Part shown: piece after piece, positions 16,076 through 39,581 of the stretch | Position numbering within the stretch: position 1 is the first letter of the stretch | Layout of the letters: the number at the start of each line of letters is the position of its first letter | NCBI GenBank assembly: GCA_964359755.1 | Contig: CAYHUB010000004.1 | Location: 1 to 39,730, forward strand | From: an uncultured Candidatus Saccharibacteria bacterium | Lineage (GTDB): Bacteria; Patescibacteriota; Minisyncoccia; GWC2-36-17; WO2-46-25 | DNA length: 39,730 nt | Direction: 5' to 3' | Position numbers and translations under genes: made by a program | The notes under the pieces: model-generated | What the model saw: the letters and a program-made list of their open reading frames with translations, nothing else | Database searches by the model: none | Told to the model about the DNA's origin: nothing

Positions 16076-16189
16076 TGGTAACCGTTTCAATTCCTTTTCT
16101 TTTAATCCTCTCACGCCCCTTTATATAAATAATAATGAAGGGCTGCGCTTCCGTTAAGATAAAAAGAAAAGGAATTGAAACGGTTACCA
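16076..16189. repeat. Long-hairpin repeat element, copy A
   Basis: 28-bp perfect inverted arms (16076-16103/16162-16189); core shared with 39459-39581 in the opposite orientation. Confidence 0.88.
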
Positions 16190-16200
16190 ACAAAAAACAA

Positions 16201-17052
16201 ATGAATAAACGATATTATTTTTTCTTTCTTGTTTTCACCGCGATATCCGTGTGGGCTTTTGCGGTTGCAGGCGCCCCGCGCGATTTTCTTTCGGTGTATG
16301 CACTCGACATCGGGCAGGGTGACGCTATTTTTATCGAAACGCCACAGCGGCATCAGATACTGATTGACGGAGGGCCGGATGCGCGCGTGGTTTCGGAGCT
16401 TGGGAGCGTCATGTCGTTTTGGGACAGAAGCATCGATCTTATCGTGCTCACACACCCGCAGGAAGATCATATGTTCGGTCTTCTTGAGGTGTTGCGCCGC
16501 TATGATGTGGCGAATGTGCTTTTGACCGGTGTGAATTATCACACGCGCACGTATGAGGAGTTCAAAAAAGCGGTAGAAAAAGAAGGCGCGCGCGTGACAT
16601 TGGCTCGTGCAGGCGAGAATATCCGGTTTGATGACGGCGTAGCAATAGCTATTTTGTTTCCGGCAAATGCGATAGCGGGAATAGATGCGCCTGCCGATGT
16701 GAATGACACTTCTGTCGCGGCGCGCCTGCGGTTTGGAGAAAAGACATTTCTTTTTATGGGAGATGCGGGCATGCAGGAAGAGGCGGCGCTGATACATTCC
16801 GGGGACAATATTGATATTGATGTATTGAAGGTGAGTCATCATGGGTCAAAAACCTCCACATCGCAGCTGTTTTTGGAAAAGACGACGCCCGCGCTTGCGG
16901 TTGTGTCGGTCGGCGCAAAGAATAAATACGGGCACCCGCACCAGGATACGCTCGCGCGGCTGAGAGGCGTTCCGTTGTATCGCACCGATACGCAGGGAAG
17001 GATCGCGGTATATACCGACGGCGAGCGTATCAGTGTCGCAACGGAGCGCTGA
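16201..17052 (+). CDS. Stand-alone ComEC-type metallo-beta-lactamase-fold nuclease
   Basis: N-terminal TM, LDIGQGDAIFI, LIDGG, LTHPQEDH, FMGDA, KVSHHGSKTS, NKYGHPH, RTD..G. Start 16201 preferred because 16135 lies inside the repeat. Confidence 0.92.
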   Translation: MNKRYYFFFLVFTAISVWAFAVAGAPRDFLSVYALDIGQGDAIFIETPQRHQILIDGGPDARVVSELGSVMSFWDRSIDLIVLTHPQEDHMFGLLEVLRRYDVANVLLTGVNYHTRTYEEFKKAVEKEGARVTLARAGENIRFDDGVAIAILFPANAIAGIDAPADVNDTSVAARLRFGEKTFLFMGDAGMQEEAALIHSGDNIDIDVLKVSHHGSKTSTSQLFLEKTTPALAVVSVGAKNKYGHPHQDTLARLRGVPLYRTDTQGRIAVYTDGERISVATER

Positions 17053-17077
17053 CGTGTATCAATAAAGTAATACAATT

Positions 17078-17113
17078 ATCACAAACTCACGCGTATGCGT
17101 GAGTTTGTGATTT
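17078..17113 (+). terminator. Terminator hairpin after the comEC MBL gene
   Basis: ATCACAAACTCACGC-GTAT-GCGTGAGTTTGTGAT, a perfect 15-bp stem. Confidence 0.75.
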
Positions 17114-17194
17114 ATGGGCGATGTGCGCGCGGGTGGGCGCTTGTATTTTCGTTGAAGATATGATATTTTTCGAGCATTAATTTTAAAAAACGCC

Positions 17195-17701
17195 ATGTCA
17201 AAAACAAATGAACGCACGTTAGTTATCTTGAAGCCCGATGCGCTTGATCGCGGTATCGTCGGCGAGATTCTTACTCGCTTTGAACGGGTGGGTACGAAGA
17301 TGGTAGGTATGAAGCTTTTGGTGTCTGAAAAAGATGCGGCGGAACGGCACTATACTGAAGATCTCGCGAAACGCCGGGGGGAACACGTGCGTACGATGAT
17401 GATCGAGATGCTTACCTCGGGACCGATTGTGGCGATGGTGCTTGAGGGTATTGATGTGGTTGAAGTGGTGCGCAAAATGATCGGTGCCACCGAGCCGAAG
17501 TCCGCCGCCCCGGGAACCATCCGCGGCGACTACGCGCATATCTCATATCGGTTTGCCGATGAAAGAAAAATAGGCGTGTTCAACCTTATTCACGCGTCCG
17601 CCACGCCCGAAGAGGCGGTTGTGGAGATCGATATTTGGTTTAAGCCGGAAGAGCTCGTAAAACACGCTCCCAGCTACACGAAATTGACCCTTCACGAATA
17701 G
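17195..17701 (+). CDS. ndk: Nucleoside diphosphate kinase
   Basis: ERTLVILKPDA, SGPIVAMV, GATEP..AAPGTIRGDY, NLIHAS (catalytic His). Confidence 0.97.
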   Translation: MSKTNERTLVILKPDALDRGIVGEILTRFERVGTKMVGMKLLVSEKDAAERHYTEDLAKRRGEHVRTMMIEMLTSGPIVAMVLEGIDVVEVVRKMIGATEPKSAAPGTIRGDYAHISYRFADERKIGVFNLIHASATPEEAVVEIDIWFKPEELVKHAPSYTKLTLHE

Positions 17702-17713
17702 GGTTTTTGGGGT

Positions 17714-17742
17714 TTGCATTTTCCTCCCGAAAGGAGTATAAT
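17714..17742 (+). promoter_or_regulatory. Promoter of the 6S RNA candidate
   Basis: TTGCAT, 17 nt, TATAAT, about 7 nt before the RNA closing stem. Confidence 0.7.
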
Positions 17743-17749
17743 ACCGATA

Positions 17750-17895
17750 GCTCTACAGGGGTAGGCAACGACTTAAGGTCAAATAATTGTTCTCGGGAGC
17801 CTTACATTGATGTGAATTGCTGGTTCGTCCGGAATTCATATCTGCGGGCACCCACGTGGACACTAGCTTAAGTCCGAGCCTCCCGTATGCAGAGC
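17750..17895 (+). ncRNA. ssrS: 6S RNA candidate (about 146 nt)
   Basis: Rod-like fold: GCTCT/AGAGC, AGGC/GCCT, GACTTAAG/CTTAAGTC closing stem; AT-rich central bubble; GGGAGCC...GGCACCC motifs typical of 6S RNAs; GATGTGAATT/AATTCATATC terminal stem. Flanked by promoter and terminator. Confidence 0.75.
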
Positions 17896-17898
17896 AAG

Positions 17899-17943
17899 AA
17901 ATTCTCTGATTCGCCATGTGGCGGACGGAGAATTTTGTTTTTT
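17899..17943 (+). terminator. Intrinsic terminator after the 6S RNA candidate
   Basis: AAATTCTCTG.TTCGCCA..TGGCGGA.GGAGAATTT followed by a T run. Confidence 0.75.
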
Positions 17944-18053
17944 AGAAAGACCTCTTGTTGATTTTTTTATGCCGGTAAATCGTCTCTATTTTTCGCACGG
18001 ACTTCCCATTCTTTTGGCGATCTAAATGGTTTATTTAAATGAAGTCAGTCGAA

Positions 18054-18100
18054 GACCATGAGCGGAGACATAGATTTATCTATGTTGAAGTCGAATGGTC
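18054..18100 (-). repeat. REP-like palindrome fused to the tRNA-Pro 3' end
   Basis: Minus strand GACCAT-TCGACT...CGCTC-ATGGTC with a nested ACATAGAT/ATCTATGT hairpin; the TTCGACT..CGCTCA core also occurs at about 22675. Confidence 0.6.
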
Positions 18101-18169
18101 GGGCCACTGGGAATCGGACCCAGACTACAAGACCCCCAGCCTTGCGTACTACCACTATACGATGGCCCG
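18096..18169 (-). tRNA. tRNA-Pro (GGG), CCA encoded
   Basis: CGGGCCA/TGGCCCG acceptor stem, TAGTGGTA D-loop, CAAGG-CTGGGGG-TCTTG anticodon arm, CTGGG-TCCGATT-CCCAG T arm, ACCA end. Confidence 0.95.
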
Positions 18170-18199
18170 TAAAATAATGCTGCCATTATGCCATTAAAA

Positions 18200-18228
18200 C
18201 AAAACCCCCGCCATAGGCGGGGGTTTTG
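18200..18228 (-). terminator. Terminator after rpmB
   Basis: CAAAACCCCCGCC-ATA-GGCGGGGGTTTTG, a perfect 13-bp stem. Confidence 0.8.
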
Positions 18229-18237
18229 AGAAGAATG

Positions 18238-18426
18238 TTATTTACTTGCTTTGTTTGCGGTCCTGATGCATTGCGTGCATGCGCGAACGCGAGCGTTGTT
18301 GATGATCGCCCACTGGATATTCGGGTATTTGCGTCGCTTGCAGGTCGGATTGTATTTACCTCTCAGTTTCTTGAGAACGGTAGATAATGCAGATGTTTTT
18401 TCGCACACTTTACATGATCGTGGCAT
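18238..18426 (-). CDS. rpmB: 50S ribosomal protein L28 (Zn-ribbon type)
   Basis: MPRSCKVCEK...KRRKYPNIQW...VRACTQCIRT; start moved to ATG 18426. Confidence 0.88.
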   Translation of the reverse strand: MPRSCKVCEKTSALSTVLKKLRGKYNPTCKRRKYPNIQWAIINNARVRACTQCIRTANKASK

Positions 18427-18516
18427 AGATTTGTATAAAAACTTTACGGCTGGAGTGTAGCATACTCTTTTAAACGAAGCAAGAGTTTGGTATAGTATTG
18501 TTTGGTATAAAGCATT

Positions 18517-19131
18517 ATGGATTTTCAACTCGCGTTATTTCAAATAACGGTACTTATTTTCTCCGCGGTGATTCACGAGGTGTCGCATGGAGCGATGGCT
18601 AATCATTTGGGCGACCCGACCGCGAAAAATCTCGGCCGGCTGACGCTCAATCCGCTCAAGCATCTTGAGGTGTTCGGCTCTTTTTTATTTCCGCTGATGA
18701 CCTATTTTGGGAGCGGGGGAAGTTTCTTATTCGGGTGGGCAAAGCCCGTACCGTATAACCCTTTATTTTTGCGCGACCCAAAGCGCGGCGCGGCGTATAT
18801 CGCCGTTGCAGGACCGCTCGCGAATTTTTCCATCGCGCTGGTGCTTGGTATGGTGCTACGCACCATCTCCCTTCCTGACGCGTTTGCGATGGCATTTGCG
18901 ATTATTGTATATATCAATATATTACTGGGAGTGTTCAATCTCGTGCCGATCCCTCCGCTTGACGGGTCAAAACTGCTGTTTGCCGTACTGGGTGATAAGC
19001 ATGCGGCAATAGAGCGGTTTTTGGAGCAGAACGGCATGCTCATCCTCCTTCTTTTTATTTTCTTCGGTTTTCACCTCCTCACGCCTATCATCGGAGTTCT
19101 TTTCCGTCTCTTTTCGGGCACTTCATTCTAA
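18517..19131 (+). CDS. Site-2 protease (peptidase M50) family protein
   Basis: IHEVSHG, LGDPTAK..GRLTLNPLKH, FGWAKPVP, AGP..N, FNLVPIPPLDG. Confidence 0.95.
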   Translation: MDFQLALFQITVLIFSAVIHEVSHGAMANHLGDPTAKNLGRLTLNPLKHLEVFGSFLFPLMTYFGSGGSFLFGWAKPVPYNPLFLRDPKRGAAYIAVAGPLANFSIALVLGMVLRTISLPDAFAMAFAIIVYINILLGVFNLVPIPPLDGSKLLFAVLGDKHAAIERFLEQNGMLILLLFIFFGFHLLTPIIGVLFRLFSGTSF

Positions 19132-19149
19132 TTTCTTTTTTGTGCGGGG

Positions 19150-19178
19150 TTGACTTTTTCGCGCCAATTTGATACTTT
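19150..19178 (+). promoter_or_regulatory. Candidate str operon promoter
   Basis: TTGACT, 17 nt, TACTTT with a TG extension. Confidence 0.45.
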
Positions 19179-19219
19179 TCATATACGCGCATTGCGCGCA
19201 GTTTTATTATAAGAAACCT

Positions 19220-19636
19220 ATGCCGACTATTAATCAATTGGTGCGAAATCGAAGAAGGAAGGTTTCAGGTAAATCAAAGTCTCCCGCACTGGGGACGAGT
19301 TTTAACGTTATTCAAAATAGACCGAAAGATTACAACTCTCCGTTTAAACGAGGAGTGTGTATCGTGGTAAAAACCATTACGCCGAAAAAACCGAACTCAG
19401 CGCTTCGGAAGGTTGCGAGAGTGCGGCTGACAAACGGGCAGGAAGTAACGGCGTATATCGGCGGCGAAGGGCACAGCTTGCAAGAACACTCGGTGGTGGT
19501 CATCCGCGGCGGGAGAGTGAAAGACCTTCCGGGTGTGCGCTACCATGTGGTGCGCGGCGTGCTTGATGCGTCGGGTGTTGAAAACAGGAAACGAGGAAGA
19601 TCAAAGTATGGAGCAAAGGTTGCAAAAAAAGCATAA
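19220..19636 (+). CDS. rpsL: 30S ribosomal protein S12
   Basis: [36 protein letters not shown]. Confidence 0.99.
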
Positions 19637-19654
19637 TAAGGAAATAAGGAAAAA

Positions 19655-20122
19655 ATGAGGAGAAAACAAAAATATAAAAGGGAAATAGAGCCGGATTATC
19701 TGTATAACAATCCGGTGGTTGCGAAATTCATCAATATTGTGATGAAAGCCGGCAAAAAGACGATTGCCGAGAAGGTTGTTTATGGCGCGCTTGAAAATAT
19801 AAAAGAAACAACAAAAAAGGACCCCATGGAGTTTTTTGACACAGCGATCAGAAATATTTCTCCGCTGGTGGAGTTGAAGTCAAAAAGAATGGGCGGAGCG
19901 AATTATCAGGTTCCTCGCGAGGTGCGCGGGGAGCGCCGGCTGGCGCTTGCATTTCGTTGGCTTATTACCGCGGCAAACGCGAAGAAGGGAAAGCCGATGG
20001 CATTAAAGCTTGCAGAGGAGATCATGCTCGCGGCAAAGAACGAAGGGGCCGCCGTGAAGAAGAAGATGGACACTCATAGAATGGCAGAAGCCAATAAGGC
20101 GTTTGCGCATTTCAGCTGGTAA
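19655..20122 (+). CDS. rpsG: 30S ribosomal protein S7
   Basis: KFINIVMKAGKK, RMGGANYQVP, HRMAEANKAFAH. Confidence 0.99.
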   Translation: MRRKQKYKREIEPDYLYNNPVVAKFINIVMKAGKKTIAEKVVYGALENIKETTKKDPMEFFDTAIRNISPLVELKSKRMGGANYQVPREVRGERRLALAFRWLITAANAKKGKPMALKLAEEIMLAAKNEGAAVKKKMDTHRMAEANKAFAHFSW

Positions 20123-20126
20123 ACAT

Positions 20127-20176
20127 AGTTATAAAGTCTATAAAGTCCTTATGGACTTTTAGCTTTATATAAACTT
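20127..20176. repeat. AT-rich hairpin built from 9-mer repeats between rpsG and fusA
   Basis: TATAAAGTC x2, then the complementary GGACTTT.AGCTTTATA. Confidence 0.6.
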
Positions 20177-20186
20177 TTTATTTTTT

Positions 20187-22292
20187 ATGTCACGAGCATA
20201 TCCGCTAGAAAAGGTACGAGATATCGGTATCATTGCGCACATTGACGCGGGTAAGACCACGGTGTCTGAGCGCGTTCTTTTTTATACGGGCGTTTCGCAT
20301 AAGATCGGCGAAGTGCATGAGGGCGCTGCGGTCATGGACTGGATGGAACAAGAGCGGGAGCGCGGGATCACTATCACCGCGGCGGCAACGACCTGTTTTT
20401 GGATTCCTACGTATCAGAAGGGAAATAAAGCATTTGAACATCGTATTAATCTGATCGATACCCCGGGACATGTCGATTTCACCGTCGAGGTGGAGCGTTC
20501 GCTTCGCGTGCTTGACGGGGGCGTCGTGGTGTTTGACGGGGTAGCGGGCGTGGAGCCGCAGTCAGAAACGGTATGGCATCAGGCGGACAAATATAACGTG
20601 CCGCGTATTTGTTTTATCAATAAACTTGATCGCGTCGGCGCGCGATGGGAAAAAGATGTCGCGTCTATTCGGGAGCGGCTGAACCCCAAGGCGGTGCCGA
20701 TCCAAATTCCTGTAGGCGAAGAAGAAAATTTTGCCGGCGTGATCGATCTGATCACGGAAAAATTCATCATGTTTTCGGGCGATCACGGAGAGACTCTTGT
20801 TGTTCAAGAAATTCCTGATGCGGAAAAAGAGCGCACCAAAAAATATCGTGAAGAAATGATCGACGCTATCGCGTCAGACGACGATACGATTACGGAAAGA
20901 TATCTTGCGGGAGAAGTGATTCCCGTCGCTGATATTAAAGCAGTGATCAGACGGTTGACGATTGCAGGAACCATCAACCCGATATTGTGCGGTACGGCGC
21001 TTAAAAACAAAGGAGTGCAATTGATGCTTGATGCAGTCGTTGATTATTTGCCGTCGCCGCTTGATCGCGGTGCGGTGACCGGCATTGATCCCAATACGGA
21101 AAAGGAAATTACACGAAATCCAAATGATACGGATCCGTTTTCGGCGCTTGCCTTTAAGATTGCGACCGATCCGTTCGTGGGTTCGCTTGCGTTCTTCCGT
21201 ATTTATTCCGGAACGCTTACAAAAGGATCATACGTATACAATTCTACAAAAGGAGAGAAAGAGCGCATCAGCCGCATTCTTCGCTTGCACGCGAACCAGC
21301 GTGAAGAAGTAGATCAGATCTTTGCGGGAGAGATTGCCGCTGCGGTCGGGTTGAAAGGCACTACCACGGGCGATACGCTGTGCGATGAGGACAACCCAAT
21401 TATTTTAGAGCGCATTACTTTTCCTGAGCCGGTTATTTCGATCCGTATTGAGCCAAAAACAAAAGCAGATCAGGAAAAAATGGGTCTTGCGCTTCGCCGG
21501 CTTGGCGAAGAAGATCCGACCTTCCGTATCCGCGTTGACCAAGAAACCGCAGAAACCATTATTTCGGGTATGGGCGAGCTTCACCTCGAGATCATTGTGG
21601 ACCGCATGTTCCGTGAGTTCGGCGTGAGCGCGAACGTGGGCACGCCGCAGGTGGCATATCGGGAAACCATCAGAAAGATGGCTGAGGCGGAAGGGAAGTA
21701 TATTAAACAAAGCGGCGGAAGAGGCCAGTATGGCCATGTGCGCTTGCGCGTAGAACCCCGAGAACGAGGCGCAGGATTTGAATTTGAAAGCGAGCTAAAA
21801 GGGGGAGTGGTTCCTCAGGAGTTTGTGCCTGCGGTTGAGAAGGGCGTGAAAGAAGCGCTTGACAAGGGCGTACTTGCCGGATATCCGATAAAGGACGTCA
21901 GAGTAATTATTTATGACGGTTCCTATCATGAAGTTGACTCGTCCGAAGCTGCGTTTAAGATCGCAGGTTCTATGGCATTTCAGGAGTGCGTGCGCCGCGC
22001 CGATCCGGTTATCTTAGAGCCGATCATGAAGGTGGTGGCAATAACCCCTCCGCAATTCATGGGCGATGTGACGGGAGACCTGAATTCGAAGCGAGGAAAA
22101 ATAGAAAGCATCGATGATCGAGGTAATATCAAAGTCATTACCGCGAAAGTGCCGCTGGCGAAAATGTTTGGGTATTCTACGCAGATCCGTTCTATGACAG
22201 AAGGAAGAGCTTCTTTTTCCATGGAATTTTCTCATTATGATGAGGTTCCGAGAAATATCGCGGAAGACATCATTGCGGGAAAGATAAAATAA
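20187..22292 (+). CDS. fusA: Elongation factor G
   Basis: [39 protein letters not shown]. Confidence 0.99.
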
Positions 22293-22301
22293 ACTACGGA
22301 T

Positions 22302-22661
22302 ATGTATGATGACATTTCCAAAATACTAAAGTCTATCACGAAAGGCGTGGTGGTGATGGAGGACGGAAAGCCCGCGTATGTTGTGGTGCCATTTGAGGAG
22401 TATAAGGAAAGCATGAAGGCAAAGAAGATCGAGGGGGTGCGGATGTGGGCAGATCCGCGCCAGCAACAGCTGGATGACGCGACCGTTATTCAGAAACTGA
22501 TCGATTACGATAGAGGAGTATCACCGCAGGATATTTTAGGAGCGGAGGAAGAAGAAGTCAGATCGCTCCTTAATTCACTTGACCGAGAACAGGAAGAAAG
22601 GGCGCCTGTTGCGGAAAACACAAGAGAAAGAGGTGTCCATTTGGAAGATTTGCCGTTTTAG
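22302..22661 (+). CDS. Hypothetical protein with a Phd/YefM-like N-terminus and an acidic tail ending EDLPF
   Basis: GVVVMEDGKPAYVVVPFEEYK resembles the Phd/YefM DNA-binding strand motif; starts 9 nt after the fusA stop. Confidence 0.75.
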   Translation: MYDDISKILKSITKGVVVMEDGKPAYVVVPFEEYKESMKAKKIEGVRMWADPRQQQLDDATVIQKLIDYDRGVSPQDILGAEEEEVRSLLNSLDREQEERAPVAENTRERGVHLEDLPF

Positions 22662-22663
22662 GG

Positions 22664-22732
22664 GGGGTTGACGCTTCGACTGCGCTCAGCATCACTTTTT
22701 GGCCAACCCTGAGTTTACCCGAGGGGTTGACG
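22664..22732. repeat. REP-like doublet flanked by a 10-bp direct repeat
   Basis: GGGGTTGACG at 22664-73 and 22723-32 encloses GCTTCGACTGCGCTCAGC and CCCTGAGTTTACCCGAGGG. Confidence 0.65.
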
Positions 22733-22755
22733 AAACCCTTATCTTTCCTTACAAT
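22727..22755 (+). promoter_or_regulatory. tuf promoter
   Basis: TTGACG, 17 nt, TACAAT. Confidence 0.7.
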
Positions 22756-22813
22756 GCCTCTATCTCGTTTTTGAGCTTTTTGTATTTATTATAACTTATT
22801 AATTAAATAATCT

Positions 22814-24007
22814 ATGGCAGAGAAATTTGAGCGTACAAAACCGCACGTGAACGTCGGAACCATCGGTCATGTCGACCACGGGAAGACAACGTTGACCGCG
22901 GCAATTCTCCACTCTCTTAACCTTACAGGGCATAAGGTAAGACTGGAGAGCATCGACCAGATCGATGCGGCACCGGAAGAAAAAGCGCGCGGTATTACGA
23001 TTGCGCTGCATCATTCGGAGTATGAATCCGACAAGCGGCATTATGCGCATATTGATGCGCCGGGCCATGCGGACTATATCAAAAATATGATCACCGGTGC
23101 GGCGCAAATGGACGGCGCGGTATTGGTTGTGGCGGCATCAGACGGTCCGATGCCTCAGACTCGAGAACACATTTTACTCGCGCACCAAGTAGGCGTGCCG
23201 CGATTGATCGTGTTCCTCAATAAGATTGACATGGTTGATGATCCGGAGCTTATTGACCTTGTTGAAGAAGAGATTAGGGATCTTCTTACAAAGTATAAAT
23301 ATGACGGCGCGAATACGCCGATCATTCGCGGTTCAGGTCTTAAAGCACTCCAGGCAACCTCAAAAGATGACGAGTGGGTAAAGAAGGTGGTTCAACTCGT
23401 AGAGACCATGGATGAGTACATCCCGGATCCTGTGCGCGATCTCGATAAGCCGTTCCTGATGCCGATCGAAGACATTTTCTCAATTGAAGGCCGCGGTACG
23501 GTGGTCACCGGGAGAGTGGAGCGCGGACGGGGGAAGGTGAATGATGAGGTAGAAATCGTCGGCTTGCGCCCAAACATGAAAACAGTGATCACCGGTATTG
23601 AAATGTTCAATAAATCGCTTGATGAAGCGATGGCTGGCGATAACGCGGGCGTGTTGCTCCGCGGTGTTAAGAAAGAAGATGTAGAGCGCGGCCAGGTTAT
23701 CGTGAAGCCGGGTTCGGTTACGCCGCATACCGAATTTGAAGCGGAGGTCTATGTGCTTACGAAGGAAGAAGGAGGAAGGCACACGCCGTTCTTCAAAGGA
23801 TATAAGCCGCAATTTTACATCAGAACAACGGACGTAACGGGCGATGTGACGTTGCCGGAAGGCGCTGAAATGGTAATGCCGGGAGACACAGTGAAAGTCA
23901 AGGTTAAATTAATTGCGCCGATCGCGCTTGAAGAAAAGCAGCGATTTGCGATCCGCGAAGGCGGTAAGACAGTTGGTGCCGGCGTGGTGACTTCTATCAT
24001 CGCGTAA
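22814..24007 (+). CDS. tuf: Elongation factor Tu
   Basis: [43 protein letters not shown]. Confidence 0.99.
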
Positions 24008-24023
24008 GCATTACATATGGGGT

Positions 24024-24350
24024 ATGGCAGTAAAAGAACCGGTCGCGCAAAAATTAAGGATCAAGATCAAAGCGTACGATAACAAGATCATCGATAACAG
24101 CGCACGCCAGATCGTGGAGGCGGCTGAACGACAGGGTGTTTCGGTGTTTGGGCCGATTCCCTTGCCGACCGAGATCAAAAAGTACGCCGTGAATCGTTCG
24201 ACGTTCGTACACAAAAGCTCAGGTGAGCATTTTGAGATGCGCGTGCATAAGCGCTTGATCGACATCGGCGAGCCAACCCCGAAAACCATTGATGCTCTTA
24301 CGAATTTAAACCTGCCTGCAGGGGTAGACATCGAGATTAAGATGGTTTAG
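24024..24350 (+). CDS. rpsJ: 30S ribosomal protein S10
   Basis: [38 protein letters not shown]. Confidence 0.99.
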
Positions 24351-24376
24351 ATTACACATGCTTCCGCGCCACAGCA

Positions 24377-24553
24377 GAGCTCATTTCAAAACTCTTTTCG
24401 TAGCGAAACCTTTGATTTTTGGACGAGACAAGGAAGATGAGTAAAATGCCCGGAAGCGTAGCAATAGCTACGATGAGGACGTTTTAAGAAATCTGACGCA
24501 GTCGCGTTCAAAAAGCGAAGGCTGTAGTAGAAAGAGGGTTTTGAAATGAGCTC
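24377..24553. mobile_element. MITE/RPE-like palindromic element (177 bp) nested in a larger hairpin (24351-24576)
   Basis: 16-bp perfect terminal inverted repeats GAGCTCATTTCAAAAC; internal CGTAGC-AATA-GCTACG hairpin in a GAGACAAGG...GCGTA..TACG.TGAGGA...GACG layout reminiscent of Rickettsia palindromic elements. Confidence 0.7.
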
Positions 24554-24582
24554 CGTGTCGCGGAACGATGTGTAATGTAAAT

Positions 24583-24658: not shown

Positions 24659-24688
24659 GTGAAAAAACCTCACCATAGGGAAAGAAAT

Positions 24689-31118: not shown

Positions 31119-31129
31119 TATTTGTTGGT

Positions 31130-31315
31130 ATGGCAAAGACATCAACCATTGCGCGATCAAAAAAGACACCGAAGTTTTCGACACGGAAAACAAACCGCTG
31201 TTTTCGGTGTGGGAGAGCGAGGGGATATATGCGCGCATTTGATCTGTGCAGAATTTGTTTCAGGGAGCTTGCACAAAAAGGGGAGATTCCGGGAATAACG
31301 CGGTCAAGCTGGTAA
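31130..31315 (+). CDS. rpsN: 30S ribosomal protein S14 (Zn-binding type Z)
   Basis: RCFRCGR...[15 protein letters not shown]. Confidence 0.98.
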
Positions 31316-31326
31316 TTACACTATAT

Positions 31327-31716: not shown

Positions 31717-31726
31717 ACAGAGTCAT

Positions 31727-32263: not shown

Positions 32264-32275
32264 AGGTAAACATAT

Positions 32276-32605
32276 ATGAATAGAAAAAGAATTCACAAAC
32301 GAATACGAGCAACAATACAAGGAACTGCCGCCACGCCGCGGCTTGCGGTATTTCGGTCTTCGAAATATATCTATGCTCAGCTTATTGATGATGCGAAAGC
32401 GGTGACATTATGCGCAGCGTCCGATGTCGGACACAAAGGGAAGCACACGAAGTCGGAGCATGCAAAAAAGATCGGCGAGGAGATCGCAAAAAAAGCGAAA
32501 GAAACAGGTATTACGAAAGTAGTATTTGACCGCGGAGGGTTTCCGTACCATGGACGTATCAAGGCCGTTGCGGATGGCGCGCGGGAAGGGGGCTTAATAT
32601 TTTAA
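32276..32605 (+). CDS. rplR: 50S ribosomal protein L18
   Basis: PRLAVFRS, YAQLIDD, VVFDRGG..YHGRI. Confidence 0.99.
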   Translation: MNRKRIHKRIRATIQGTAATPRLAVFRSSKYIYAQLIDDAKAVTLCAASDVGHKGKHTKSEHAKKIGEEIAKKAKETGITKVVFDRGGFPYHGRIKAVADGAREGGLIF

Positions 32606-32607
32606 GT

Positions 32608-33129
32608 ATGGCAATGCAACGACAAAAATCAGAATTTGACCAAAAAACACTCGACATCAGGAGAGTGGCGCGTACCATGGCGGGAGGAAGACGATTTAGT
32701 TTTCGGGTAACGATGGCGCTCGGGGATAGGAAGGGCGGCGTCGGCGTCGGTACGGCAAAAGGGCTGGATGTTGCCGCATCCATTGAAAAAGCGATGCAGC
32801 AAGCGAAAAAAAATATTACCAAGATCTGCACGCATAACGATACTATCCCGCATACCGTTAGTAAGAAGTTTCGGAGCGCGCGCGTGCTTCTGAAGCCGGC
32901 AAAGCCCGGGACGGGTATTATTGCGGGCGGAGCGGTGCGGGTGATTTGCGAGCTTGCGGGAATCAAGAATGTTACCGGGAAAATTCAAGGGAAAAGCTCA
33001 AACAAGATCAATGTAAGCGCGGCAACGATCGCCGCATTAAAGAGCTTGAAGCCGAGGAAACAGAAAACAGTCAAGACGGGAGCACCGACACAAGGTGCGG
33101 CGACAGACGAGAAAACAGCGTCACAATAA
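32608..33129 (+). CDS. rpsE: 30S ribosomal protein S5
   Basis: RVARTMAGGRRFSF, PAKPGTGIIAGG. Confidence 0.99.
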   Translation: MAMQRQKSEFDQKTLDIRRVARTMAGGRRFSFRVTMALGDRKGGVGVGTAKGLDVAASIEKAMQQAKKNITKICTHNDTIPHTVSKKFRSARVLLKPAKPGTGIIAGGAVRVICELAGIKNVTGKIQGKSSNKINVSAATIAALKSLKPRKQKTVKTGAPTQGAATDEKTASQ

Positions 33130-33133
33130 TCAT

Positions 33134-33562
33134 ATGCAACTTCACGAACTTACGAATAAAAAGAAAAATAAGAAACGCATCGCTCGCGGCGGCGCTCATG
33201 GAAAGACGTCCGGACGAGGCACAAAAGGCCAGAAATCGCGCGCAGGACATAGAATACGTCCCGCAGAACGCGACCTGATCAAAAAGATCCCTAAATTACG
33301 CGGGTATCGTTTTAAGAGTATCGGCGCGAAATACGCTGCAGTGAATCTTTTCACGATAAATGCGGCGTTTGTATCGGGGGATTCGGTTACGCCGGAGTCG
33401 TTGTGCGTTCATGGTCTTATCGAAAAAAGAGGAAGCAAGTTTCCTTTGGTAAAGATACTCGGCGGCGGAGTGCTGGAGAAAAAGCTCAGCGTGGAACGAT
33501 GCTTTGTTTCCGCATCGGCGAAAGAAAAGATCGAGAAGGCTGGCGGCGCGGTAAAGGAATAA
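33134..33562 (+). CDS. rplO: 50S ribosomal protein L15
   Basis: RIARGG..GKTSGRGTKGQKSR, VKILG.G, SASAKEKIEKAGG. Confidence 0.98.
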   Translation: MQLHELTNKKKNKKRIARGGAHGKTSGRGTKGQKSRAGHRIRPAERDLIKKIPKLRGYRFKSIGAKYAAVNLFTINAAFVSGDSVTPESLCVHGLIEKRGSKFPLVKILGGGVLEKKLSVERCFVSASAKEKIEKAGGAVKE

Positions 33563-33565
33563 GAC

Positions 33566-34840
33566 ATGGTAGGAAAACTAATACAAATTTTTAAAACGAA
33601 GGATCTCCGCAGGAAGATCTTTTTCGTGCTCGCATTGCTTGCAGTATTTCGTGTTGCCGCGGTGATCCCTGTGCCGGGAATCGATGTCAGCAGGCTACAG
33701 AGTTTTTTTGAAGGGAACCAGTTTTTCGGGTTGCTCAATGTTTTTTCCGGAGGCGCGCTTGATAATCTTTCCATCGTGATGCTCGGTGTCGGTCCGTATA
33801 TCACCGCGCTTATCATTATGCAGCTCCTTACTATGGTCTTCCCGCAATTAAAGGAGTTGTACCAGGGCGAAGGCGAGCAGGGGAGGCAAAAATTCAATCA
33901 ATACACGAGGCTGTTGACTATTCCGCTTGCCGGCTTGCAAGGGTATGGCCTCTTAGCATTGTTGCAGAGTCAGAACGTTATTGATCGGCTTGATCTTTTT
34001 TCTCTCATCACCAATCTTACGGTGATTATCGCGGGAACCGTATTTCTTATGTGGATCGGCGAGATCATCTCCGAGAAAAAGATCGGCAACGGTATTTCGC
34101 TGCTCATCTTTGCGGGTATTATTGCGGCTATCCCGACGCAGATACGGCAGTTTTTTCTTAATTTCGACCCGTCCATGGTGCCGACCGCGATCGTGTTTCT
34201 TGCCGTCGCGGTGATTGTAACCGCGGGCGTCGTGTTTATTAACGATAGCCAGCGAAATATTCCCGTTTCCTATGCAAAAAGAGTACGCGGGTCAAAAGTA
34301 TATGGAGGAACATCGACCTATCTTCCTCTGAAAGTGAATCAGGCGGGGGTGATCCCTATTATTTTTGCGATATCGATTTTGTTATTCCCGCAGATGCTCG
34401 GCAACTTTATGCAGCTTTCGGGTATGGAATGGATTCAAAATGCCGGACGATCGCTTTCAGGGTTTTTCCAGGCGGGCGGATTTTTGTACGGGCTTCTTTA
34501 TTTCACGCTGGTGATCCTTTTCACATATTTTTATACCGCGGTTACGTTCGATACGAAGCAGATCGCGGAAACCGTTCAAAAGCAAGGCGGGTTTGTGCCG
34601 GGCATCCGCCCGGGGAATCCAACTGCGGATTTTCTCGCAAAAGTAATGAACAGGATCACGCTTGCGGGAGCGACATCGCTGGGCGTTATCGCGGTTCTGC
34701 CGTTCATTATCCAGTATTTTACCGGCACCGCCACCTTGACCATCGGCGGCACGGCGCTTTTAATCGCGGTTTCTGTCGCGCTTGATACGATGAAACAAAT
34801 CGATGCGCAGTTGGTCATGCACGAATACGAAAAGTTCTAG
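33566..34840 (+). CDS. secY: Preprotein translocase subunit SecY
   Basis: LGVGPYITA, IGNGISLLIFAGI, LKVNQAGVIPIIFA, PGIRPG, GGTALLI. Confidence 0.99.
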   Translation: MVGKLIQIFKTKDLRRKIFFVLALLAVFRVAAVIPVPGIDVSRLQSFFEGNQFFGLLNVFSGGALDNLSIVMLGVGPYITALIIMQLLTMVFPQLKELYQGEGEQGRQKFNQYTRLLTIPLAGLQGYGLLALLQSQNVIDRLDLFSLITNLTVIIAGTVFLMWIGEIISEKKIGNGISLLIFAGIIAAIPTQIRQFFLNFDPSMVPTAIVFLAVAVIVTAGVVFINDSQRNIPVSYAKRVRGSKVYGGTSTYLPLKVNQAGVIPIIFAISILLFPQMLGNFMQLSGMEWIQNAGRSLSGFFQAGGFLYGLLYFTLVILFTYFYTAVTFDTKQIAETVQKQGGFVPGIRPGNPTADFLAKVMNRITLAGATSLGVIAVLPFIIQYFTGTATLTIGGTALLIAVSVALDTMKQIDAQLVMHEYEKF

Positions 34841-34882
34841 CGATTTTTAACAAATCACGCGACGTGATACCATGAAGGAGTA

Positions 34883-35581
34883 ATGGAAAAAGAACCACTC
34901 AATCTCATTATACTCGGGCGCTCGGGAAGCGGAAAAGGAACGCAAGCCCAGATACTCTCACACGAGTTTAATTTGGAATATATCGGCACGGGAGATCTTT
35001 TACGAAAATTTTCAGAACGAGAAAATGCGGCGGCGCATCGCATGAAGGAAACAATGGCACAAGGGAAACTCGCTCCTTCCTGGATGCCATTTTTTATTTG
35101 GATGGAAAAACTCGCGTATACCGATGTGCATAAGGGCGTGCTTTTTGACGGCAGTCCGCGGATGCTCGGAGAAGCTATTACGCTTGACGAAGTGCTTGAT
35201 TGGTTCGAGCGAAAAAACATAAAAGTGATATTGATCGATATTTCCCGCGAAATCGCGCTTAAACGTCTTATGAAGCGGCGCGTGTGCGGCACGTGCAAGC
35301 GCGGCGCGTACGTGGAAAACGAAAAAGAAACGCCTCAGACGCATTGCCACTATTGCGGAGGAGACCTGACGATCCGCGCGGAGGATAATCCCGAGGGAAT
35401 TGAGGCGCGGCTTAATTGGTTCGATCAGGAAGTCGCTAAAGTCCTCGATCATTATCGCGCGAAGGGAAATCTTATTACGGTAAACGGAGAAAAAGATTCA
35501 AACATTGTGCATCAAGAGATTGTAGAGGCGCTTGCTGCACATAATATTTTTCCTCAACATCAGGACGGAGCGAAAGCATAA
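34883..35581 (+). CDS. adk: Adenylate kinase (Zn-lid type)
   Basis: GRSGSGKGTQA P-loop, TGDLLR, DGSPR, RRVCGTC...CHYCGG lid; follows secY. Confidence 0.93.
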   Translation: MEKEPLNLIILGRSGSGKGTQAQILSHEFNLEYIGTGDLLRKFSERENAAAHRMKETMAQGKLAPSWMPFFIWMEKLAYTDVHKGVLFDGSPRMLGEAITLDEVLDWFERKNIKVILIDISREIALKRLMKRRVCGTCKRGAYVENEKETPQTHCHYCGGDLTIRAEDNPEGIEARLNWFDQEVAKVLDHYRAKGNLITVNGEKDSNIVHQEIVEALAAHNIFPQHQDGAKA

Positions 35582-36354
35582 TGACTTCTATCATTATCAG
35601 CACAGAAAAGGAGATCATCGCGATGCGCCGCGGAGGAAAGATCTTGGCGGAGGTACTTGCACGACTTGCAGAAATGGCTGTCCCTGGCGCAGATGCCTCG
35701 GAGCTCAACAAAGAGGCGGAAAAACTCATCGCCAAGCATGGTGCGACCCCTCTTTTTTTGGGATATCAGCCGGAAGGAGCGTCATCACCCTATCCTGCGG
35801 CGCTATGTGTGAGTATTAATGATGAAGTAGTGCATGCGGTTCCGTATACAGGAAAAATCATCAAAGAGGGAGATGTGATAAGTCTTGACCTCGGTGTTCG
35901 CTATGAGGGTATGTGCACCGACAGCGCGCTTACGGTTGCGGCAGGTGCTGTTCCTGTCCGAACGCGAAAACTTATCGCGGTAACGAATAAAGCGCTGTAT
36001 GAGGGTATCGCTGTCGTGCGCGCCGGCGCGCGGATCGGCGATATCGGGCATGCTATCCAGCAGTGCATCGAGCAGGAGGGGTTTTCTGTGGTGCGCGAGC
36101 TTGCGGGGCATGGCGTAGGGCATCATGCGCACGAAGAGCCGATGATCTTGAATTTCGGAAAAAAGGGAACAGGCGAGCAACTTGTTGCGGGTATGACGAT
36201 CGCGCTTGAGCCGATGGTGACCGACGGCGATTGGCGCATCAAAACCGATACGGATGGATGGGGCATTCGCACCATGGACGGGTCGCTCGCGGCGCATTTT
36301 GAACACACACTCCTTGTGACGGAGGAAGGGTGTGAGATACTGACAGAACTCTGA
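35581..36354 (+). CDS. map: Methionine aminopeptidase type I
   Basis: CVSINDEVVH, SLDLG...TDSA, GHGVG...HEEP, ALEPM, AHFEHT. Confidence 0.98.
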   Translation: MTSIIISTEKEIIAMRRGGKILAEVLARLAEMAVPGADASELNKEAEKLIAKHGATPLFLGYQPEGASSPYPAALCVSINDEVVHAVPYTGKIIKEGDVISLDLGVRYEGMCTDSALTVAAGAVPVRTRKLIAVTNKALYEGIAVVRAGARIGDIGHAIQQCIEQEGFSVVRELAGHGVGHHAHEEPMILNFGKKGTGEQLVAGMTIALEPMVTDGDWRIKTDTDGWGIRTMDGSLAAHFEHTLLVTEEGCEILTEL

Positions 36355-36479
36355 ATTTCTAATATTTAATTTCTAATCAATGACCAAATTCTAATGCCCA
36401 ATGATTAAAAAACTGTGCATCTATCAAACATTTTATCATTGTGATTTGATTAGGAATTAGAAATTTGTCATTAGAAATT
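36354..36479. repeat. AT-rich heptamer-periodic inverted-repeat element
   Basis: AATTTCT-AATATTT-AATTTCT-AATCAAT-GACC... mirrored by ...CATTG.GATTTGATTAGGAATTAGAAATTTGTCATTAGAAATT. Confidence 0.75.
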
Positions 36480-36481
36480 AT

Positions 36482-36865
36482 ATGAAGTTTTTAGGCATCG
36501 ATTACGGAGAAAAGCGCATCGGCATTGCGGTGTCCGATGACGGCGGCATGATCGCATTTCCGCATGTAACGATCGAAAACACATCTTTTACGCTTTCAGA
36601 GATCAAAAAAATATGCGATGCCCAAAAGCCAGTGCATATTATTATCGGGATGCCGATGCTTATCGGCGAGGTGTCGCCGCTCATGCGGACGATTGAGCGA
36701 TTTGGCGAGGCGCTTGCGCGATTCGCGCAGATCCCGGTGGCGTATGAAAACGAAATGTTTACGACGAAAATGGCCATCCGCGATGGCGCGAAAAAAAATA
36801 CGGTAGATCAAAGCTCCGCCGCGCTTATTTTGCAAAGTTATTTAGACAGACAAAAAAGGGTATAG
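36482..36865 (+). CDS. yqgF: YqgF/RuvX family nuclease (pre-16S rRNA processing)
   Basis: LGIDYGEKRIGIAVSD, IIIGMP, ENEMFTT, VDQSSAALILQSYLD. Confidence 0.95.
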   Translation: MKFLGIDYGEKRIGIAVSDDGGMIAFPHVTIENTSFTLSEIKKICDAQKPVHIIIGMPMLIGEVSPLMRTIERFGEALARFAQIPVAYENEMFTTKMAIRDGAKKNTVDQSSAALILQSYLDRQKRV

Positions 36866-36891
36866 TATAATAGAGTCACCAACAACTAAGC

Positions 36892-37632
36892 ATGGAAAAA
36901 GAAGTTTTTTTATCGGTCGTGATTCCTGCATATAATGAAGAACATCGTCTCGGCACAACGCTTGAGGCGGTTGATGCATATCTCAAAAAACAAACATATG
37001 AGTATGAAGTGCTGGTGGTAAGCGACGGGTCGTCGGACCGCACCGGAGCAATGGTGAGAGACCGCGCGCGCACCATGCAGGGGCTCGTGCTTATCGATAA
37101 CAAAGAAAACAACGGCAAAGGATATGTCGTGCGGCAGGGGATGCTTGCCGCGCGTGGAAAGTTTAGGTTATTCATGGATTCCGATCATTCCGTATCAATT
37201 GAGTACGTGGAAAAATTTCTGCCGTATTTCTCGCAGGGGTATGACGTAGTGATCGCTTCCATAGAGCTTCCGGGGGCGACCATAGAAGAACGCGCGGCGT
37301 GGTATCGGCGCATACTCGGGCATTATGCAAAACTCCTTATTCGCCTGCTCGCTATTTGGGAGATACACGATACCCAGCGGGGGTTCAAGATCTTTTCCGC
37401 TCGCGCCGCGAATGAAGTTTTTTCTTTGCAAACGCTTACGCGATGGGGGTTTGACATCGAGGTATTGGTGATCGCAAAGAAGCTTGGCTACCGCATGAAA
37501 GAGCTTCCGGTGATATGGAAAAATAGCGGAGAATCAAAAGTGGGCTTAAGCGCGTATGTCACGACATTGCGTGATTTGTTTATCGTGCGAAAGAATATGC
37601 TTTTGGGTAAATATCGCCGTATAACAAAATAA
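36892..37632 (+). CDS. GT2 glycosyltransferase (polyprenol-phosphate glycosyltransferase, ALG5/DPG-synthase-like)
   Basis: SVVIPAYNEE, VVSDGSSDRT, NNGKGY, FMDSD, DTQRGFKIF, WGFDIEVL. Confidence 0.93.
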   Translation: MEKEVFLSVVIPAYNEEHRLGTTLEAVDAYLKKQTYEYEVLVVSDGSSDRTGAMVRDRARTMQGLVLIDNKENNGKGYVVRQGMLAARGKFRLFMDSDHSVSIEYVEKFLPYFSQGYDVVIASIELPGATIEERAAWYRRILGHYAKLLIRLLAIWEIHDTQRGFKIFSARAANEVFSLQTLTRWGFDIEVLVIAKKLGYRMKELPVIWKNSGESKVGLSAYVTTLRDLFIVRKNMLLGKYRRITK

Positions 37633-37647
37633 GCGTAACGAGTATTC

Positions 37648-38673
37648 ATGGCAATAAAAAAGAAAAATATATCGGAGTTACGGCAGGACCTGGTATCGGG
37701 GGATTGGGTGGTGATCGCGCTTGCGCGCGGAAAGCGCCCCTATGCATTTGCGGCGGGGGAAAAGCCGAAAAAAAAGGACACGCCCCTTTCTCAGTGTCCG
37801 TTCGAATCGTTATCGGAAAGGAAAGAGAAGCCGTTCGTACGATATGACTATCAGCAGGGAGGCCGGGCGACCGGGTGGTCGGTGGTGGCTGTTTTGAATA
37901 AATTTCCCGCATTCAGCAAAGGAACATGCAATTCTTTTTCCAAAGAAGGCCCGTATACGTTTGCGGAAGGAGTTGGGTCGCATGAGGTATTTATTTTACG
38001 GGATCACAAGCGCTATATTCCCGATCTTGATGCGGAAGAGATGATCAATCTTGTGCGCGCGTATCGGGAGCGGTACCGGGCGCTTGAGCACCAAAAATGC
38101 GTTGCCTACGTGCTGGTGTTTCATAATCATGGCCGAGAGGCTGGCGCGTCGCTTCCCCACCCGCATTCGCAGTTGATCGCGATGCCGGTAATCCCGGCCG
38201 ATGTGTCGCGGAGTTTGCGGGGATCGGAACGTTTTTTTCATGAGCACGGAACCTGCGTGCACTGCGAGATGATCCAATATGAGCTGCGGGTGAAAAAAAG
38301 GATCATCGATGAAAATGACCGGTTTGTCGCATTTGCGCCGTTCGCTTCGAAAGTGGCATTTGAAGTGCGGATCTCTCCGAAAATCCACCAGCCGAATTTT
38401 GGCATGCTTGAAGACGATGATCTCGCGCTGGTCGCAAAGATGCTGCAAAAGCAGCTGACGCGTTTGCGGAACGGTTTAAATGATCCTGCGTATAACTTTT
38501 TTATTCATACGGCGCCCGACGGCGAGAAACATGGCCATTATCATTGGCACATCGAAATCCTGCCCAAGACGTCCATTTGGGCCGGCTTTGAGATGGGTAC
38601 GGGCATTGAAATATCCGCGCTTGCTCCTGAAGCCGCCGCGGCATTCCTAAGAAAAGTTAAGATTTCGAAATAA
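37648..38673 (+). CDS. galT: Galactose-1-phosphate uridylyltransferase-like (GalT/HIT superfamily)
   Basis: SELRQD...WVVIA..R.KRP, NKFPAF, G.HEV, NHGREAGASLPHPHSQ, HWHIEI.P, AGFEMGTG. Confidence 0.88.
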   Translation: MAIKKKNISELRQDLVSGDWVVIALARGKRPYAFAAGEKPKKKDTPLSQCPFESLSERKEKPFVRYDYQQGGRATGWSVVAVLNKFPAFSKGTCNSFSKEGPYTFAEGVGSHEVFILRDHKRYIPDLDAEEMINLVRAYRERYRALEHQKCVAYVLVFHNHGREAGASLPHPHSQLIAMPVIPADVSRSLRGSERFFHEHGTCVHCEMIQYELRVKKRIIDENDRFVAFAPFASKVAFEVRISPKIHQPNFGMLEDDDLALVAKMLQKQLTRLRNGLNDPAYNFFIHTAPDGEKHGHYHWHIEILPKTSIWAGFEMGTGIEISALAPEAAAAFLRKVKISK

Positions 38674-38694
38674 AATTATTACCGAAAAGGGTTT

Positions 38695-39435
38695 ATGAAA
38701 CTTATTGTTGCAAATTGGAAAGCGTATGTTGCTGCCGCGAAAGAGGCGGAGTGCCTCGCAAAAAAAATAGCGCAGATAAAGATAAAAAAAGGTACCGCGG
38801 TCGTGGTATGCCCGCCGTTTGTGTTTCTTGATGCGGTCAAAAAAAAGATAGGACGAACAATACGCCTTGGTGCGCAGGATATTTTTTGGAAGGAGAGCGG
38901 TCCATATACGGGGGCGATCACCGCGGATATGCTCAAGGGGCTTGGCGTGCAAACAGTGATCGTCGGCCATTCCGAGCGGCGTCAGCATTTTTTAGAGAGC
39001 GATGATGTCGTACGTAAGAAGGTGGACATGGCGCTTGCCGGGGGGTTTGATGTGATCATCTGCGTCGGCGAACGAGAGCGGGAAGACAAGAAAGCGGTTC
39101 CCGAATCAGTAGGAGAACAAGTACGCGCCGCGCTCACCGGGATCTCGAAGGGTGCGCTTGCGCGCATTACTATCGCCTATGAACCGATATGGGCGATCGG
39201 TACGGGAGTTTCCGACACGCCTAATGACGCGCTTTCTGCGGCGATCTATATTAAAAAAGTTGTGGGCGAAATGTTCGGTTCAGCGCAGGCAGCTATGGTG
39301 AAAGTACTGTATGGGGGGTCGGTGGACTCCCGCAATATCCGCGACTTCGTTTTTCAGGAGGGGATTGATGGTGTGCTGGTAGGACGAGCATCGACCGACA
39401 AAGAGGAGTTTGCAAAGATGCTCGCATCTCTCTAA
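38695..39435 (+). CDS. tpiA: Triose-phosphate isomerase
   Basis: VANWK, GAQD, VGHSERR, AYEPIWAIGTG, LYGGSV. Confidence 0.98.
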   Translation: MKLIVANWKAYVAAAKEAECLAKKIAQIKIKKGTAVVVCPPFVFLDAVKKKIGRTIRLGAQDIFWKESGPYTGAITADMLKGLGVQTVIVGHSERRQHFLESDDVVRKKVDMALAGGFDVIICVGEREREDKKAVPESVGEQVRAALTGISKGALARITIAYEPIWAIGTGVSDTPNDALSAAIYIKKVVGEMFGSAQAAMVKVLYGGSVDSRNIRDFVFQEGIDGVLVGRASTDKEEFAKMLASL

Positions 39436-39458
39436 AATATTTTTTGAATTCGAAAGAG

Positions 39459-39581
39459 TTCCCCCGTCGCTCTCAATTCTTTCTTTTATCTTAATCCGCC
39501 GGCTGGCGGACAGCCCTTCATTATTGTTTTATATAAAAGGGCGTGAGAGGATTAAAGAAAGAATTGAGAGCGACGGGGGAA
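39459..39581. repeat. Long-hairpin repeat element, copy B
   Basis: 28-bp perfect inverted arms (39459-39486/39554-39581); core is the reverse complement of the 16076 element core. Confidence 0.88.

Follow-up and report, generated by a model that had tools for sequence, protein, structure and literature searches.

Long hairpins at the comEC and tpiA loci

The analysed stretch, hereafter the window, comprises 39,730 nt of contig CAYHUB010000004.1 (assembly GCA_964359755.1) from an ultra-small groundwater bacterium of the candidate phyla radiation (CPR), the genome of which (794 kb in 32 contigs) is 99.5% complete. A repeat search of the window revealed two long hairpins, copy A (16076-16189) and copy B (39459-39581), which are members of a real, previously undescribed family in Azambacteria-related CPR bacteria. 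The arms of copy A (16076-16107 and 16158-16189) are 32 nt long, 97% complementary with one mismatch, and enclose a 50-nt spacer; those of copy B (39459-39490 and 39550-39581) have the same length and complementarity, also with one mismatch, and enclose 59 nt. According to BLAST, 28 bp within each 32-nt stem pair perfectly in both copies. The two elements share a core in opposite orientation, with 16101-16129 pairing with 39528-39556 (29 nt, 97%) and a 46-nt BLAST match at 93.5%, and their outer arms are unrelated in sequence. Repeat search and BLAST thus agree with an earlier note on this DNA, which had described two hairpins with perfect 28-bp arms, a shared inverted core and unrelated outer arms. 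The same note had placed copy A at the split point of comEC, and the element indeed lies between the two halves of the split gene (14710-16068 and 16201-17052). The features of the two loci are as follows.

14710..16068, plus strand: comEC N-terminal part (DUF4131 and Competence domains), left of copy A
16076..16107, plus strand: copy A, 5' arm of the long stem (P1), with the outer ~18 nt copy-specific
16108..16157, plus strand: copy A, core in '+' orientation, between the arms
16108-16114, plus strand: copy A, unpaired CTCTCAC, part of the core
16115-16143, plus strand: copy A, hairpin P2 of the core (GCCCC, AT-rich loop, AAGGGC), followed by TG
16146-16153, plus strand: copy A, small element CGCTTCCG of the core
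16154-16157, plus strand: copy A, TTAA at the end of the core
16158..16189, plus strand: copy A, 3' arm of P1, complement of 16076-16107 with one conserved mismatch near the junction
16201..17052, plus strand: comEC C-terminal part (metallo-beta-lactamase domain), right of copy A
38695..39435, plus strand: triose-phosphate isomerase gene (tpiA), left of copy B
39442..39455, plus strand: eroded motif TTTTGAATTCGAAA beside copy B, resembling a terminal inverted repeat (TIR); by-eye match to CTTTGAATTACGAAA with one base deleted
39459..39490, minus strand: copy B, 3' arm of P1 (element read on the minus strand)
39491..39549, minus strand: copy B, core, inverted relative to that of copy A, between the arms
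39495-39510, minus strand: copy B, variant 16-nt palindrome TCCGCCGGCTGGCGGA of the core, replacing CGCTTCCG
39550..39581, minus strand: copy B, 5' arm of P1, from the repeat search

The position of copy A raises the question of whether the element disrupted comEC. The metallo-beta-lactamase part forms a frame of its own (~290-360 residues) in 17 of the 19 genomes of the order, including element-free ones, and the element is present at the junction only in the genus of the window genome, the corresponding loci of two other genomes (G001 and G009) being devoid of it. Because the split is order-wide and also found in genomes lacking the element, the latter is ruled out as its cause: the gene boundary is old and was not created by the element that now sits there.

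Two further repeats were observed around comEC. A 63-nt direct repeat with 92% identity (14067-14126 versus 14716-14775) represents a fossil duplicate of the start of the comEC N-terminal gene (its first ~20 codons), located 649 nt upstream of the real start and terminating in a stop codon. Directly after the metallo-beta-lactamase gene, at 17067-17115, lies a 49-nt repeat that contains a hairpin of 15 perfect bp (CACAAACTCACGCG..CGCGTGAGTTTGTG) and is found in five copies in the window genome (contigs C4, C10 and C26, and twice in C11), with more in three relatives (G006-G008).

Family size and distribution

Searches with BLAST and an nhmmer profile identified 19 loci of the family in the window genome, of which two are truncated at contig ends, one is missing its 3' arm and one is heavily mismatched. 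Each of the 19 occupies an intergenic region, in most cases flanked by co-directional genes. Relatives contribute more than 80 further copies. The earlier note had thus been right to regard the hairpin as a repeat and had underestimated the copy number, since the core search of the genome and its relatives shows that the element is not restricted to the two copies of the window.

A covariance model (R1) recovered the repeat in 7 of 11 genomes belonging to the taxonomic family and in 9 of 19 from the order as a whole, the matches in a second family of the order being weaker. When one genome per species was scanned for an exact pattern, 33 stretches emerged; 16 are true members, all in Candidatus Azambacteria or Patescibacteria records, and the other 17 were rejected as chance matches in which the second anchor is missing. 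Metagenome contigs yielded 42 more loci in a scan, and 28 fresh distinct copies were taken from such contigs for comparison. Phage and plasmid collections contained no match to the family. The earlier note's failure to recognize the family is borne out by Rfam, where no family reached the gathering score for either hairpin. The sole window match at that score is a tRNA, the gene of which is located at 18099-18169 on the minus strand. A permissive Rfam scan around copy A recovered generic miRNA-precursor hairpins, with 13.6-36.7 bits against cut-offs of 55-160. Literature searches on palindromic repeats and miniature inverted-repeat transposable elements (MITEs) of CPR/Patescibacteria yielded no account of such a family.

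Anatomy of the module

The conserved module is a T-shaped structure of ~125 nt, consisting of a ~31-bp stem, a three-way-junction core and two small inner hairpins. Read in the sense of the core, the first arm is followed by unpaired CCWCTCAC, the P2 hairpin (GCCCTT...AAGGGC with an AT-rich loop), TG, CGCTTCCG, TTAA and the second arm. The 16-nt palindrome seen in copy B replaces CGCTTCCG in 4 of the 19 window-genome copies, copy B included. Of the 70 copies in which both anchors are present, 53 possess ungapped stems, which range from 24 to 34 bp (mode 31), and 49 of these 53 well-formed copies keep a mismatch at stem position 4 from the junction.

Different parts of the module evolve at different rates. 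Between 11 pairs of positional orthologs, identity amounts to 88% in the core blocks, 82% in the inner stem and 56% in the outer stem. In distant homologs from this second family, GCTCAC and CTGCGCTTCCGTTAA are retained, and P2 covaries, being replaced by other paired sequences. Since the outer stem drifts and the core and inner stem hardly change, we infer a sequence-specific role of the core, for instance, in recognition by a protein or as a folded single-stranded form. The fixed stem length and the asymmetric mismatch, considered together with the conserved core, point in the same direction, with the role possibly exerted in a folded single strand.

Two other roles were considered and rejected. 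A small peptide might be encoded by an ATG/TTG-opened frame discerned by eye at the 3' side of P2, a frame that is altered by the 16-nt variant. As to the arms serving as guides, their matches elsewhere in the genome are just 12-13 nt long, which is the chance level.

Some copies deviate from the canonical layout. In six loci (L105, L107, L108, L113 and L114 of G007/G008, and L095 of G006), the small third element carries a structured insertion of ~70 nt (~125 nt in one case), and in four composites (L097, L109, L110 and L112), a second module (ATTCCCTGTTTGTCC...GACGGGGC) is located between the core and the 3' arm.

Arms change in concert

The arms vary extensively while remaining paired. Across 29 copies, standard pairs occupy 96.1% of the pair cells, compared to 78.5% after shuffling (the observed value was reached in 0 of 500 shuffles) and 42-54% with slid partners. 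In helix 1 of these copies, both sides change in 24 of the 30 pairs and one-sided variation is found in none, with just three G.U cells. Larger sets display the same composition: the stem cells of 80 loci include 2006 Watson-Crick, 26 G.T, 60 A.C and 70 other combinations, and those of the 28 fresh metagenome copies include 811, 7, 5 and 12, respectively. Many stem columns hold AU, CG, GC and UA together, and double transversions are common (AU/CG/GC at one column); therefore, the changes are not confined to the transition path via wobble pairs. Two-sided changes also prevail in the outer stems of the 11 pairs of positional orthologs (81 versus 10 one-sided). Insertions follow the same rule. 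The inner part of the copy A 5' arm, CAATTCCTTTTCTTTTAATC, corresponds to the conserved inner stem of the family plus three extra bases, and these three bases, inserted relative to copy B and the rest of the family, are mirrored exactly in the other arm. DNA-level copying from arm to arm predicts mirrored indels and double transversions as well as a near lack of wobbles, none of which would be expected from stepwise compensation in RNA.

These observations bear directly on the possibility that the element is a structured RNA with its fold under selection, either a small RNA in its own right or a cis element within the transcripts of operons, for example, a hairpin for stability or for processing by RNase III. 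The difference in identity between core and outer stem, the retention of core motifs in the second family while P2 covaries, the narrow range of stem lengths and the asymmetric mismatch all would fit such an RNA, as would the intergenic location of all 19 copies, which are likely to be transcribed given that most lie between co-directional genes. Besides, in RNA library X18, five of the seven contigs over 14000-18000 carry cores, a weak indication given that DNA carry-over and read-through are possible; these contigs cannot show strand, ends or level, and because the repeat is multi-copy, they demonstrate no discrete RNA. A first de-duplicated count relative to the core strand (58 A.C versus 26 G.T) suggested wobble tolerance on the minus strand of the core, an excess that tracked the strand of the core rather than that of the genes. 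However, the asymmetry was not replicated in the 28 fresh copies (7 G.T and 5 A.C) and is treated as unproven, and when mismatches were counted by gene strand, there was none (18 versus 20).

Other lines of evidence also speak against an RNA. With wobbles almost absent and none of the 30 stem pairs varying on one side only, transversion-type mismatches are as common as wobbles, and double-transversion covariation and mirrored indels are hard to reach via RNA intermediates. A 31-bp helix is probably too stable for selection to police single mismatches, the homologs from the second family (f5) lack the AT-rich loop, and Rfam contains no matching family. There is no consistent promoter: a single 9/12 sigma-70-like match was found on the minus strand inside copy A, none inside copy B, and the other copies, by reading, lack it. 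Nor was a terminator-like site detected at the long stem by a scan that handles loops of 3-8 nt, and the 3' flanks, again by reading, contain no T run. Roles of the element as a promoter or as a terminator were rejected. The structured RNA under selection for a long duplex, one of the two options of the earlier note, accordingly gains little from evidence that is weak, and we regard it as unlikely; the inversions of the core described below detract from it further.

Core inversion and exchange of alleles

The opposite orientation of the cores in copies A and B is not peculiar to this pair. In 5 of 14 comparisons between positional orthologs, the comEC site among them, the core is inverted, and single loci show both core orientations among relatives. 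The four species of the genus all have the element at the comEC junction, and the core of G006 is inverted with respect to those of the window genome (G000), G007 and G008. Furthermore, a contig from a ~92%-identical strain joins position 16061 to position 16161 on opposite strands, which is copy A in its flipped state (one contig, depth of 3.7). With respect to flanking co-directional genes, the orientation of the core is unbiased (20 sense and 21 antisense). This random and flipping orientation is a further argument against a structured RNA, because a read-through transcript would carry either strand of the core.

Hairpin alleles also move between loci, as shown once: at a locus with ~92% identical flanks, the allele of G008 matches that of a different locus in the window genome.

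Mobility, termini and target duplications

Flanks of the copies from relatives were mapped onto the window genome. At all 12 sites examined that are occupied in relatives, the window genome has neither arm, the flanks being either adjacent or separated by 0-70 unrelated bases. Therefore, both arms are brought along by the element rather than being copies of flanking DNA. Together with the 19 copies, these filled and empty sites substantiate the suggestion of the earlier note that the element is mobile, whereas the specific route that it envisaged, with the element making its own arms at insertion as an inverted copy of flanking target DNA, is contradicted. Copy-specific and yet perfectly paired outer arms are what this route would produce; nevertheless, in addition to the 12 empty sites, the arms of different copies share a diverged consensus and two genomes carry an identical arm allele at different loci. 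We consider this route next to impossible.

In 9 of the 12 filled-versus-empty cases, (C)TTTGAATTACGAAAT and its inverted counterpart delimit the inserted block, 20-25 nt beyond the stem. Inverted CTTTGAATTACGAAA ends bound nine hairpin-bearing units, and the TIR-bounded units that contain the hairpin are 172-205 bp long, apart from a looser pairing of 238 bp. Perfect 7-bp duplications of the target (ATATTAA, TAAGATA and TATATTT) were identified, and of the three, only the TAAGATA unit (L066) bears the hairpin; in several further TIR-bounded units, the flanking repeats match at five of seven positions. Across the order, the TIR motif is strongly enriched over the reversed control (e.g., 27 versus 1 and 21 versus 0), even in genomes without the hairpin. 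The termini are absent from copy A and eroded in copy B, where TTTTGAATTCGAAA (39442-39455) directly follows the tpiA stop codon and falls below the threshold of the TIR-motif scan, which allowed up to two mismatches. The earlier note had contrasted the hairpins with ordinary MITEs on the grounds that their outside varies. The arms do vary, but in many copies conserved CTTTGAATTACGAAA termini lie 20-25 nt outside the stem, so that the contrast is partly an artefact of their erosion at the two copies of the window. Given that the termini are often absent, the hairpin may also move or persist on its own.

The same inverted CTTTGAATTACGAAA ends delimit a second repeat family in the window genome (61-247 bp), which is free of the long hairpin. 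Its copies of 61-121 bp with a different central hairpin (GCTGTACT..AGTACAGC) are located at C6:11267-11386, C20:4982-5102, C6:21251-21369 and C14:11996-12056, and one copy of this family has the perfect 7-bp duplication ATATTAA.

Search for a partner transposase

The earlier note had proposed looking for a transposase gene next to the copies; no partner transposase was found among the families tested in 11 genomes (other families were not searched). TnpB (PF07282), DDE_Tnp_1 (PF01609) and DDE_3 (PF13358) are absent from all 11 genomes of the taxonomic family. Y1_Tnp (PF01797) is present in eight and rve (PF00665) in seven of them, neither in the window genome. The terminal motif does not occur beside the Y1_Tnp or rve genes of relatives, and the rve elements have other termini. 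Widely spaced pairs of the TIR motif enclose host genes (glycosyltransferase, Wzy_C and SIMPL) and no autonomous element. In the eight genomes with Y1_Tnp, the domain is found in partial form in proteins of ~240-250 aa (e.g., G006:C26:4896-5129 and G006:C30:11093-11329).

Enzymes of the HUH/Y1 type recognize shape and a few bases rather than the sequence of a stem. A stem with conserved structure and free sequence, carrying a conserved asymmetric mismatch, could be a folded single-stranded DNA (ssDNA) substrate of an HUH/Y1 tyrosine transposase, similar to REPIN-RAYT or to a palindrome derived from IS200/IS605. The Y1_Tnp proteins of the eight relatives are weakly similar to the REP-associated tyrosine transposase (36-38 bits versus the NCBIfam cut-off of 80). 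Yet, the window genome combines 19 copies with no Y1_Tnp match, and co-occurrence is poor in general, with three genomes carrying Y1 without the element and two the element without Y1. No TIR motif was found near four Y1 genes, loci that were not scanned for the hairpin itself. Finally, Y1 elements make no target duplications, whereas 7-bp duplications and inverted termini are seen here, and the hairpin has no REP head of the GTAG type. Such a substrate role appears highly improbable.

Proposed mode of evolution

Considering all these observations, we favour, with moderate confidence, the view that the family is a non-autonomous, MITE-like mobile repeat, in which the arms are kept complementary by DNA-level copying from arm to arm that also flips the core. 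The module would belong to, or ride in, a MITE-like element of ~172-205 bp with CTTTGAATTACGAAA ends and AT-rich target duplications of ~7 bp. Both arms are brought in at insertion, as the empty sites show. Thereafter, the sequence of the arms would be free to change, with one arm being recopied from the other by replication template switching or gene conversion, such that Watson-Crick complementarity is kept. The same process might repeatedly invert the core between the arms in a flip-flop manner, and whole hairpin alleles are exchanged between loci, as seen once. The opposite orientation of the cores in copies A and B would be explained by this inverting activity. Among the alternatives raised in the earlier note, homogenization of the arms offers the best fit to the pairing confined to Watson-Crick combinations, the mirrored indels and the core flips.

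Template switching between short inverted repeats leads both to homogenization of the arms and to reversible inversion of the spacer (PMC8604942), and can maintain perfect hairpin stems and produce multibase compensatory changes (PMC8794818). We consider it the best available mechanism, from which RecA-type recombination between the 31-bp arms is inseparable as an alternative.

Several observations weigh against this reconstruction. The published template-switch inversions have spacers of a few bases (PMC8604942), as opposed to 50-60 nt or more here. Indiscriminate homogenization would tend to erase the mismatch at position 4, which persists in 49 of 53 copies, and the tight stem length (24-34 bp, mode 31) could reflect selection on the folded form. 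The step of copying between arms is deduced from patterns in the sequences. As to mobility, 3 of the 12 filled-versus-empty cases lack a TIR, the TIR motif occurs within 55 nt of just 32 of 80 copies (on both sides in eight), and perfect 7-bp target duplications flank just 3 of the 19 listed TIR-bounded units. Moreover, no autonomous element with CTTTGAATTACGAAA termini was found in the 11 genomes, with other transposase families not searched.

A more speculative scenario, which we also regard as unlikely and put slightly below the structured RNA, is that of a domesticated, functional T-shaped element of ultra-small CPR bacteria, found in 19-25 copies per 0.8-Mb genome and more than the decaying body of a MITE. 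The junction GCTCAC ... CTGCGCTTCCGTTAA would be read by a protein in the folded form (RNA or ssDNA), and the stem would be kept perfect by programmed or structure-driven flip-flop copying. If true, this would represent a new class of structure-defined, orientation-switching intergenic elements.

Comparison with known systems

Similar to the bacterial MITEs, such as Correia/CREE of Neisseria, ERIC and RUP, the elements described here are small, non-coding, intergenic and multi-copy, with presence/absence at orthologous sites and, in part of the copies, inverted termini and short target duplications, and their whole body would fold into a long hairpin when transcribed. However, there is no sequence relation to these MITEs. 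In the present family, almost every copy has a stem sequence of its own that is nonetheless perfectly paired, the core changes orientation at fixed loci, and the hairpin persists in spite of termini that most copies retain in eroded form. The host belongs to the CPR and has a genome of 0.8 Mb, and a partner transposase was not found among the families searched. REPINs and their RAYT transposases offer another parallel, being hairpin-forming intergenic repeats that persist for long in a lineage, and Y1 genes are present in some relatives of the window genome; by contrast, the window genome has no RAYT/Y1 gene, and the element is not built from two REP units.

The terminal hairpins of parvoviruses are T-shaped and exist in flip and flop forms. 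The resemblance to the module, with ~125 nt, a long stem, two inner hairpins at a three-way junction and two inner orientations, may be regarded as an analogy only, given that the element is chromosomal and internal rather than located at a genome end. No Rep gene was seen, although no search aimed at one was made, and nothing points to replication by a rolling hairpin. Quasipalindromes formed by template switching share with the family the homogenization of arms and reversible inversion of the spacer (PMC8604942) as well as the maintenance of perfect stems (PMC8794818). In the published cases, which come from ordinary genes or rRNA, the arms measure 7-16 bp and the spacers a few bases, whereas in the family described here ~31-bp arms flank a conserved spacer module of 50-60 nt or longer, which is mobile and multi-copy.

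CPR/Patescibacteria have tiny genomes with a high coding density, the repeats of which are for the most part uncharted. With a freely evolving Watson-Crick stem, mirrored indels and a 50-60-nt core flipping at fixed sites, the family represents an unusually clean natural case and a good system for assessing how far 'compensatory' covariation stems from DNA-level template switching or conversion between arms and not from RNA selection, which amounts to a caveat for covariation-based RNA discovery. The conserved core is also a concrete lead to a core-binding protein in organisms that are not yet culturable alone.

Other palindromes in the window

Two further palindromes were observed in the window. 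A long imperfect palindrome of 236 nt at 24346-24581, with a predicted folding energy of -112 kcal/mol, is single-copy in the window genome; its ends, TTTAGATTACACATG...CGATGTGTAATGTAAA, resemble the terminal motif, and it may belong to the same terminal-repeat superfamily. An AT-rich imperfect palindrome at 36354-36479, with 43-nt arms that are 72% complementary, has weak partial matches on three other contigs.

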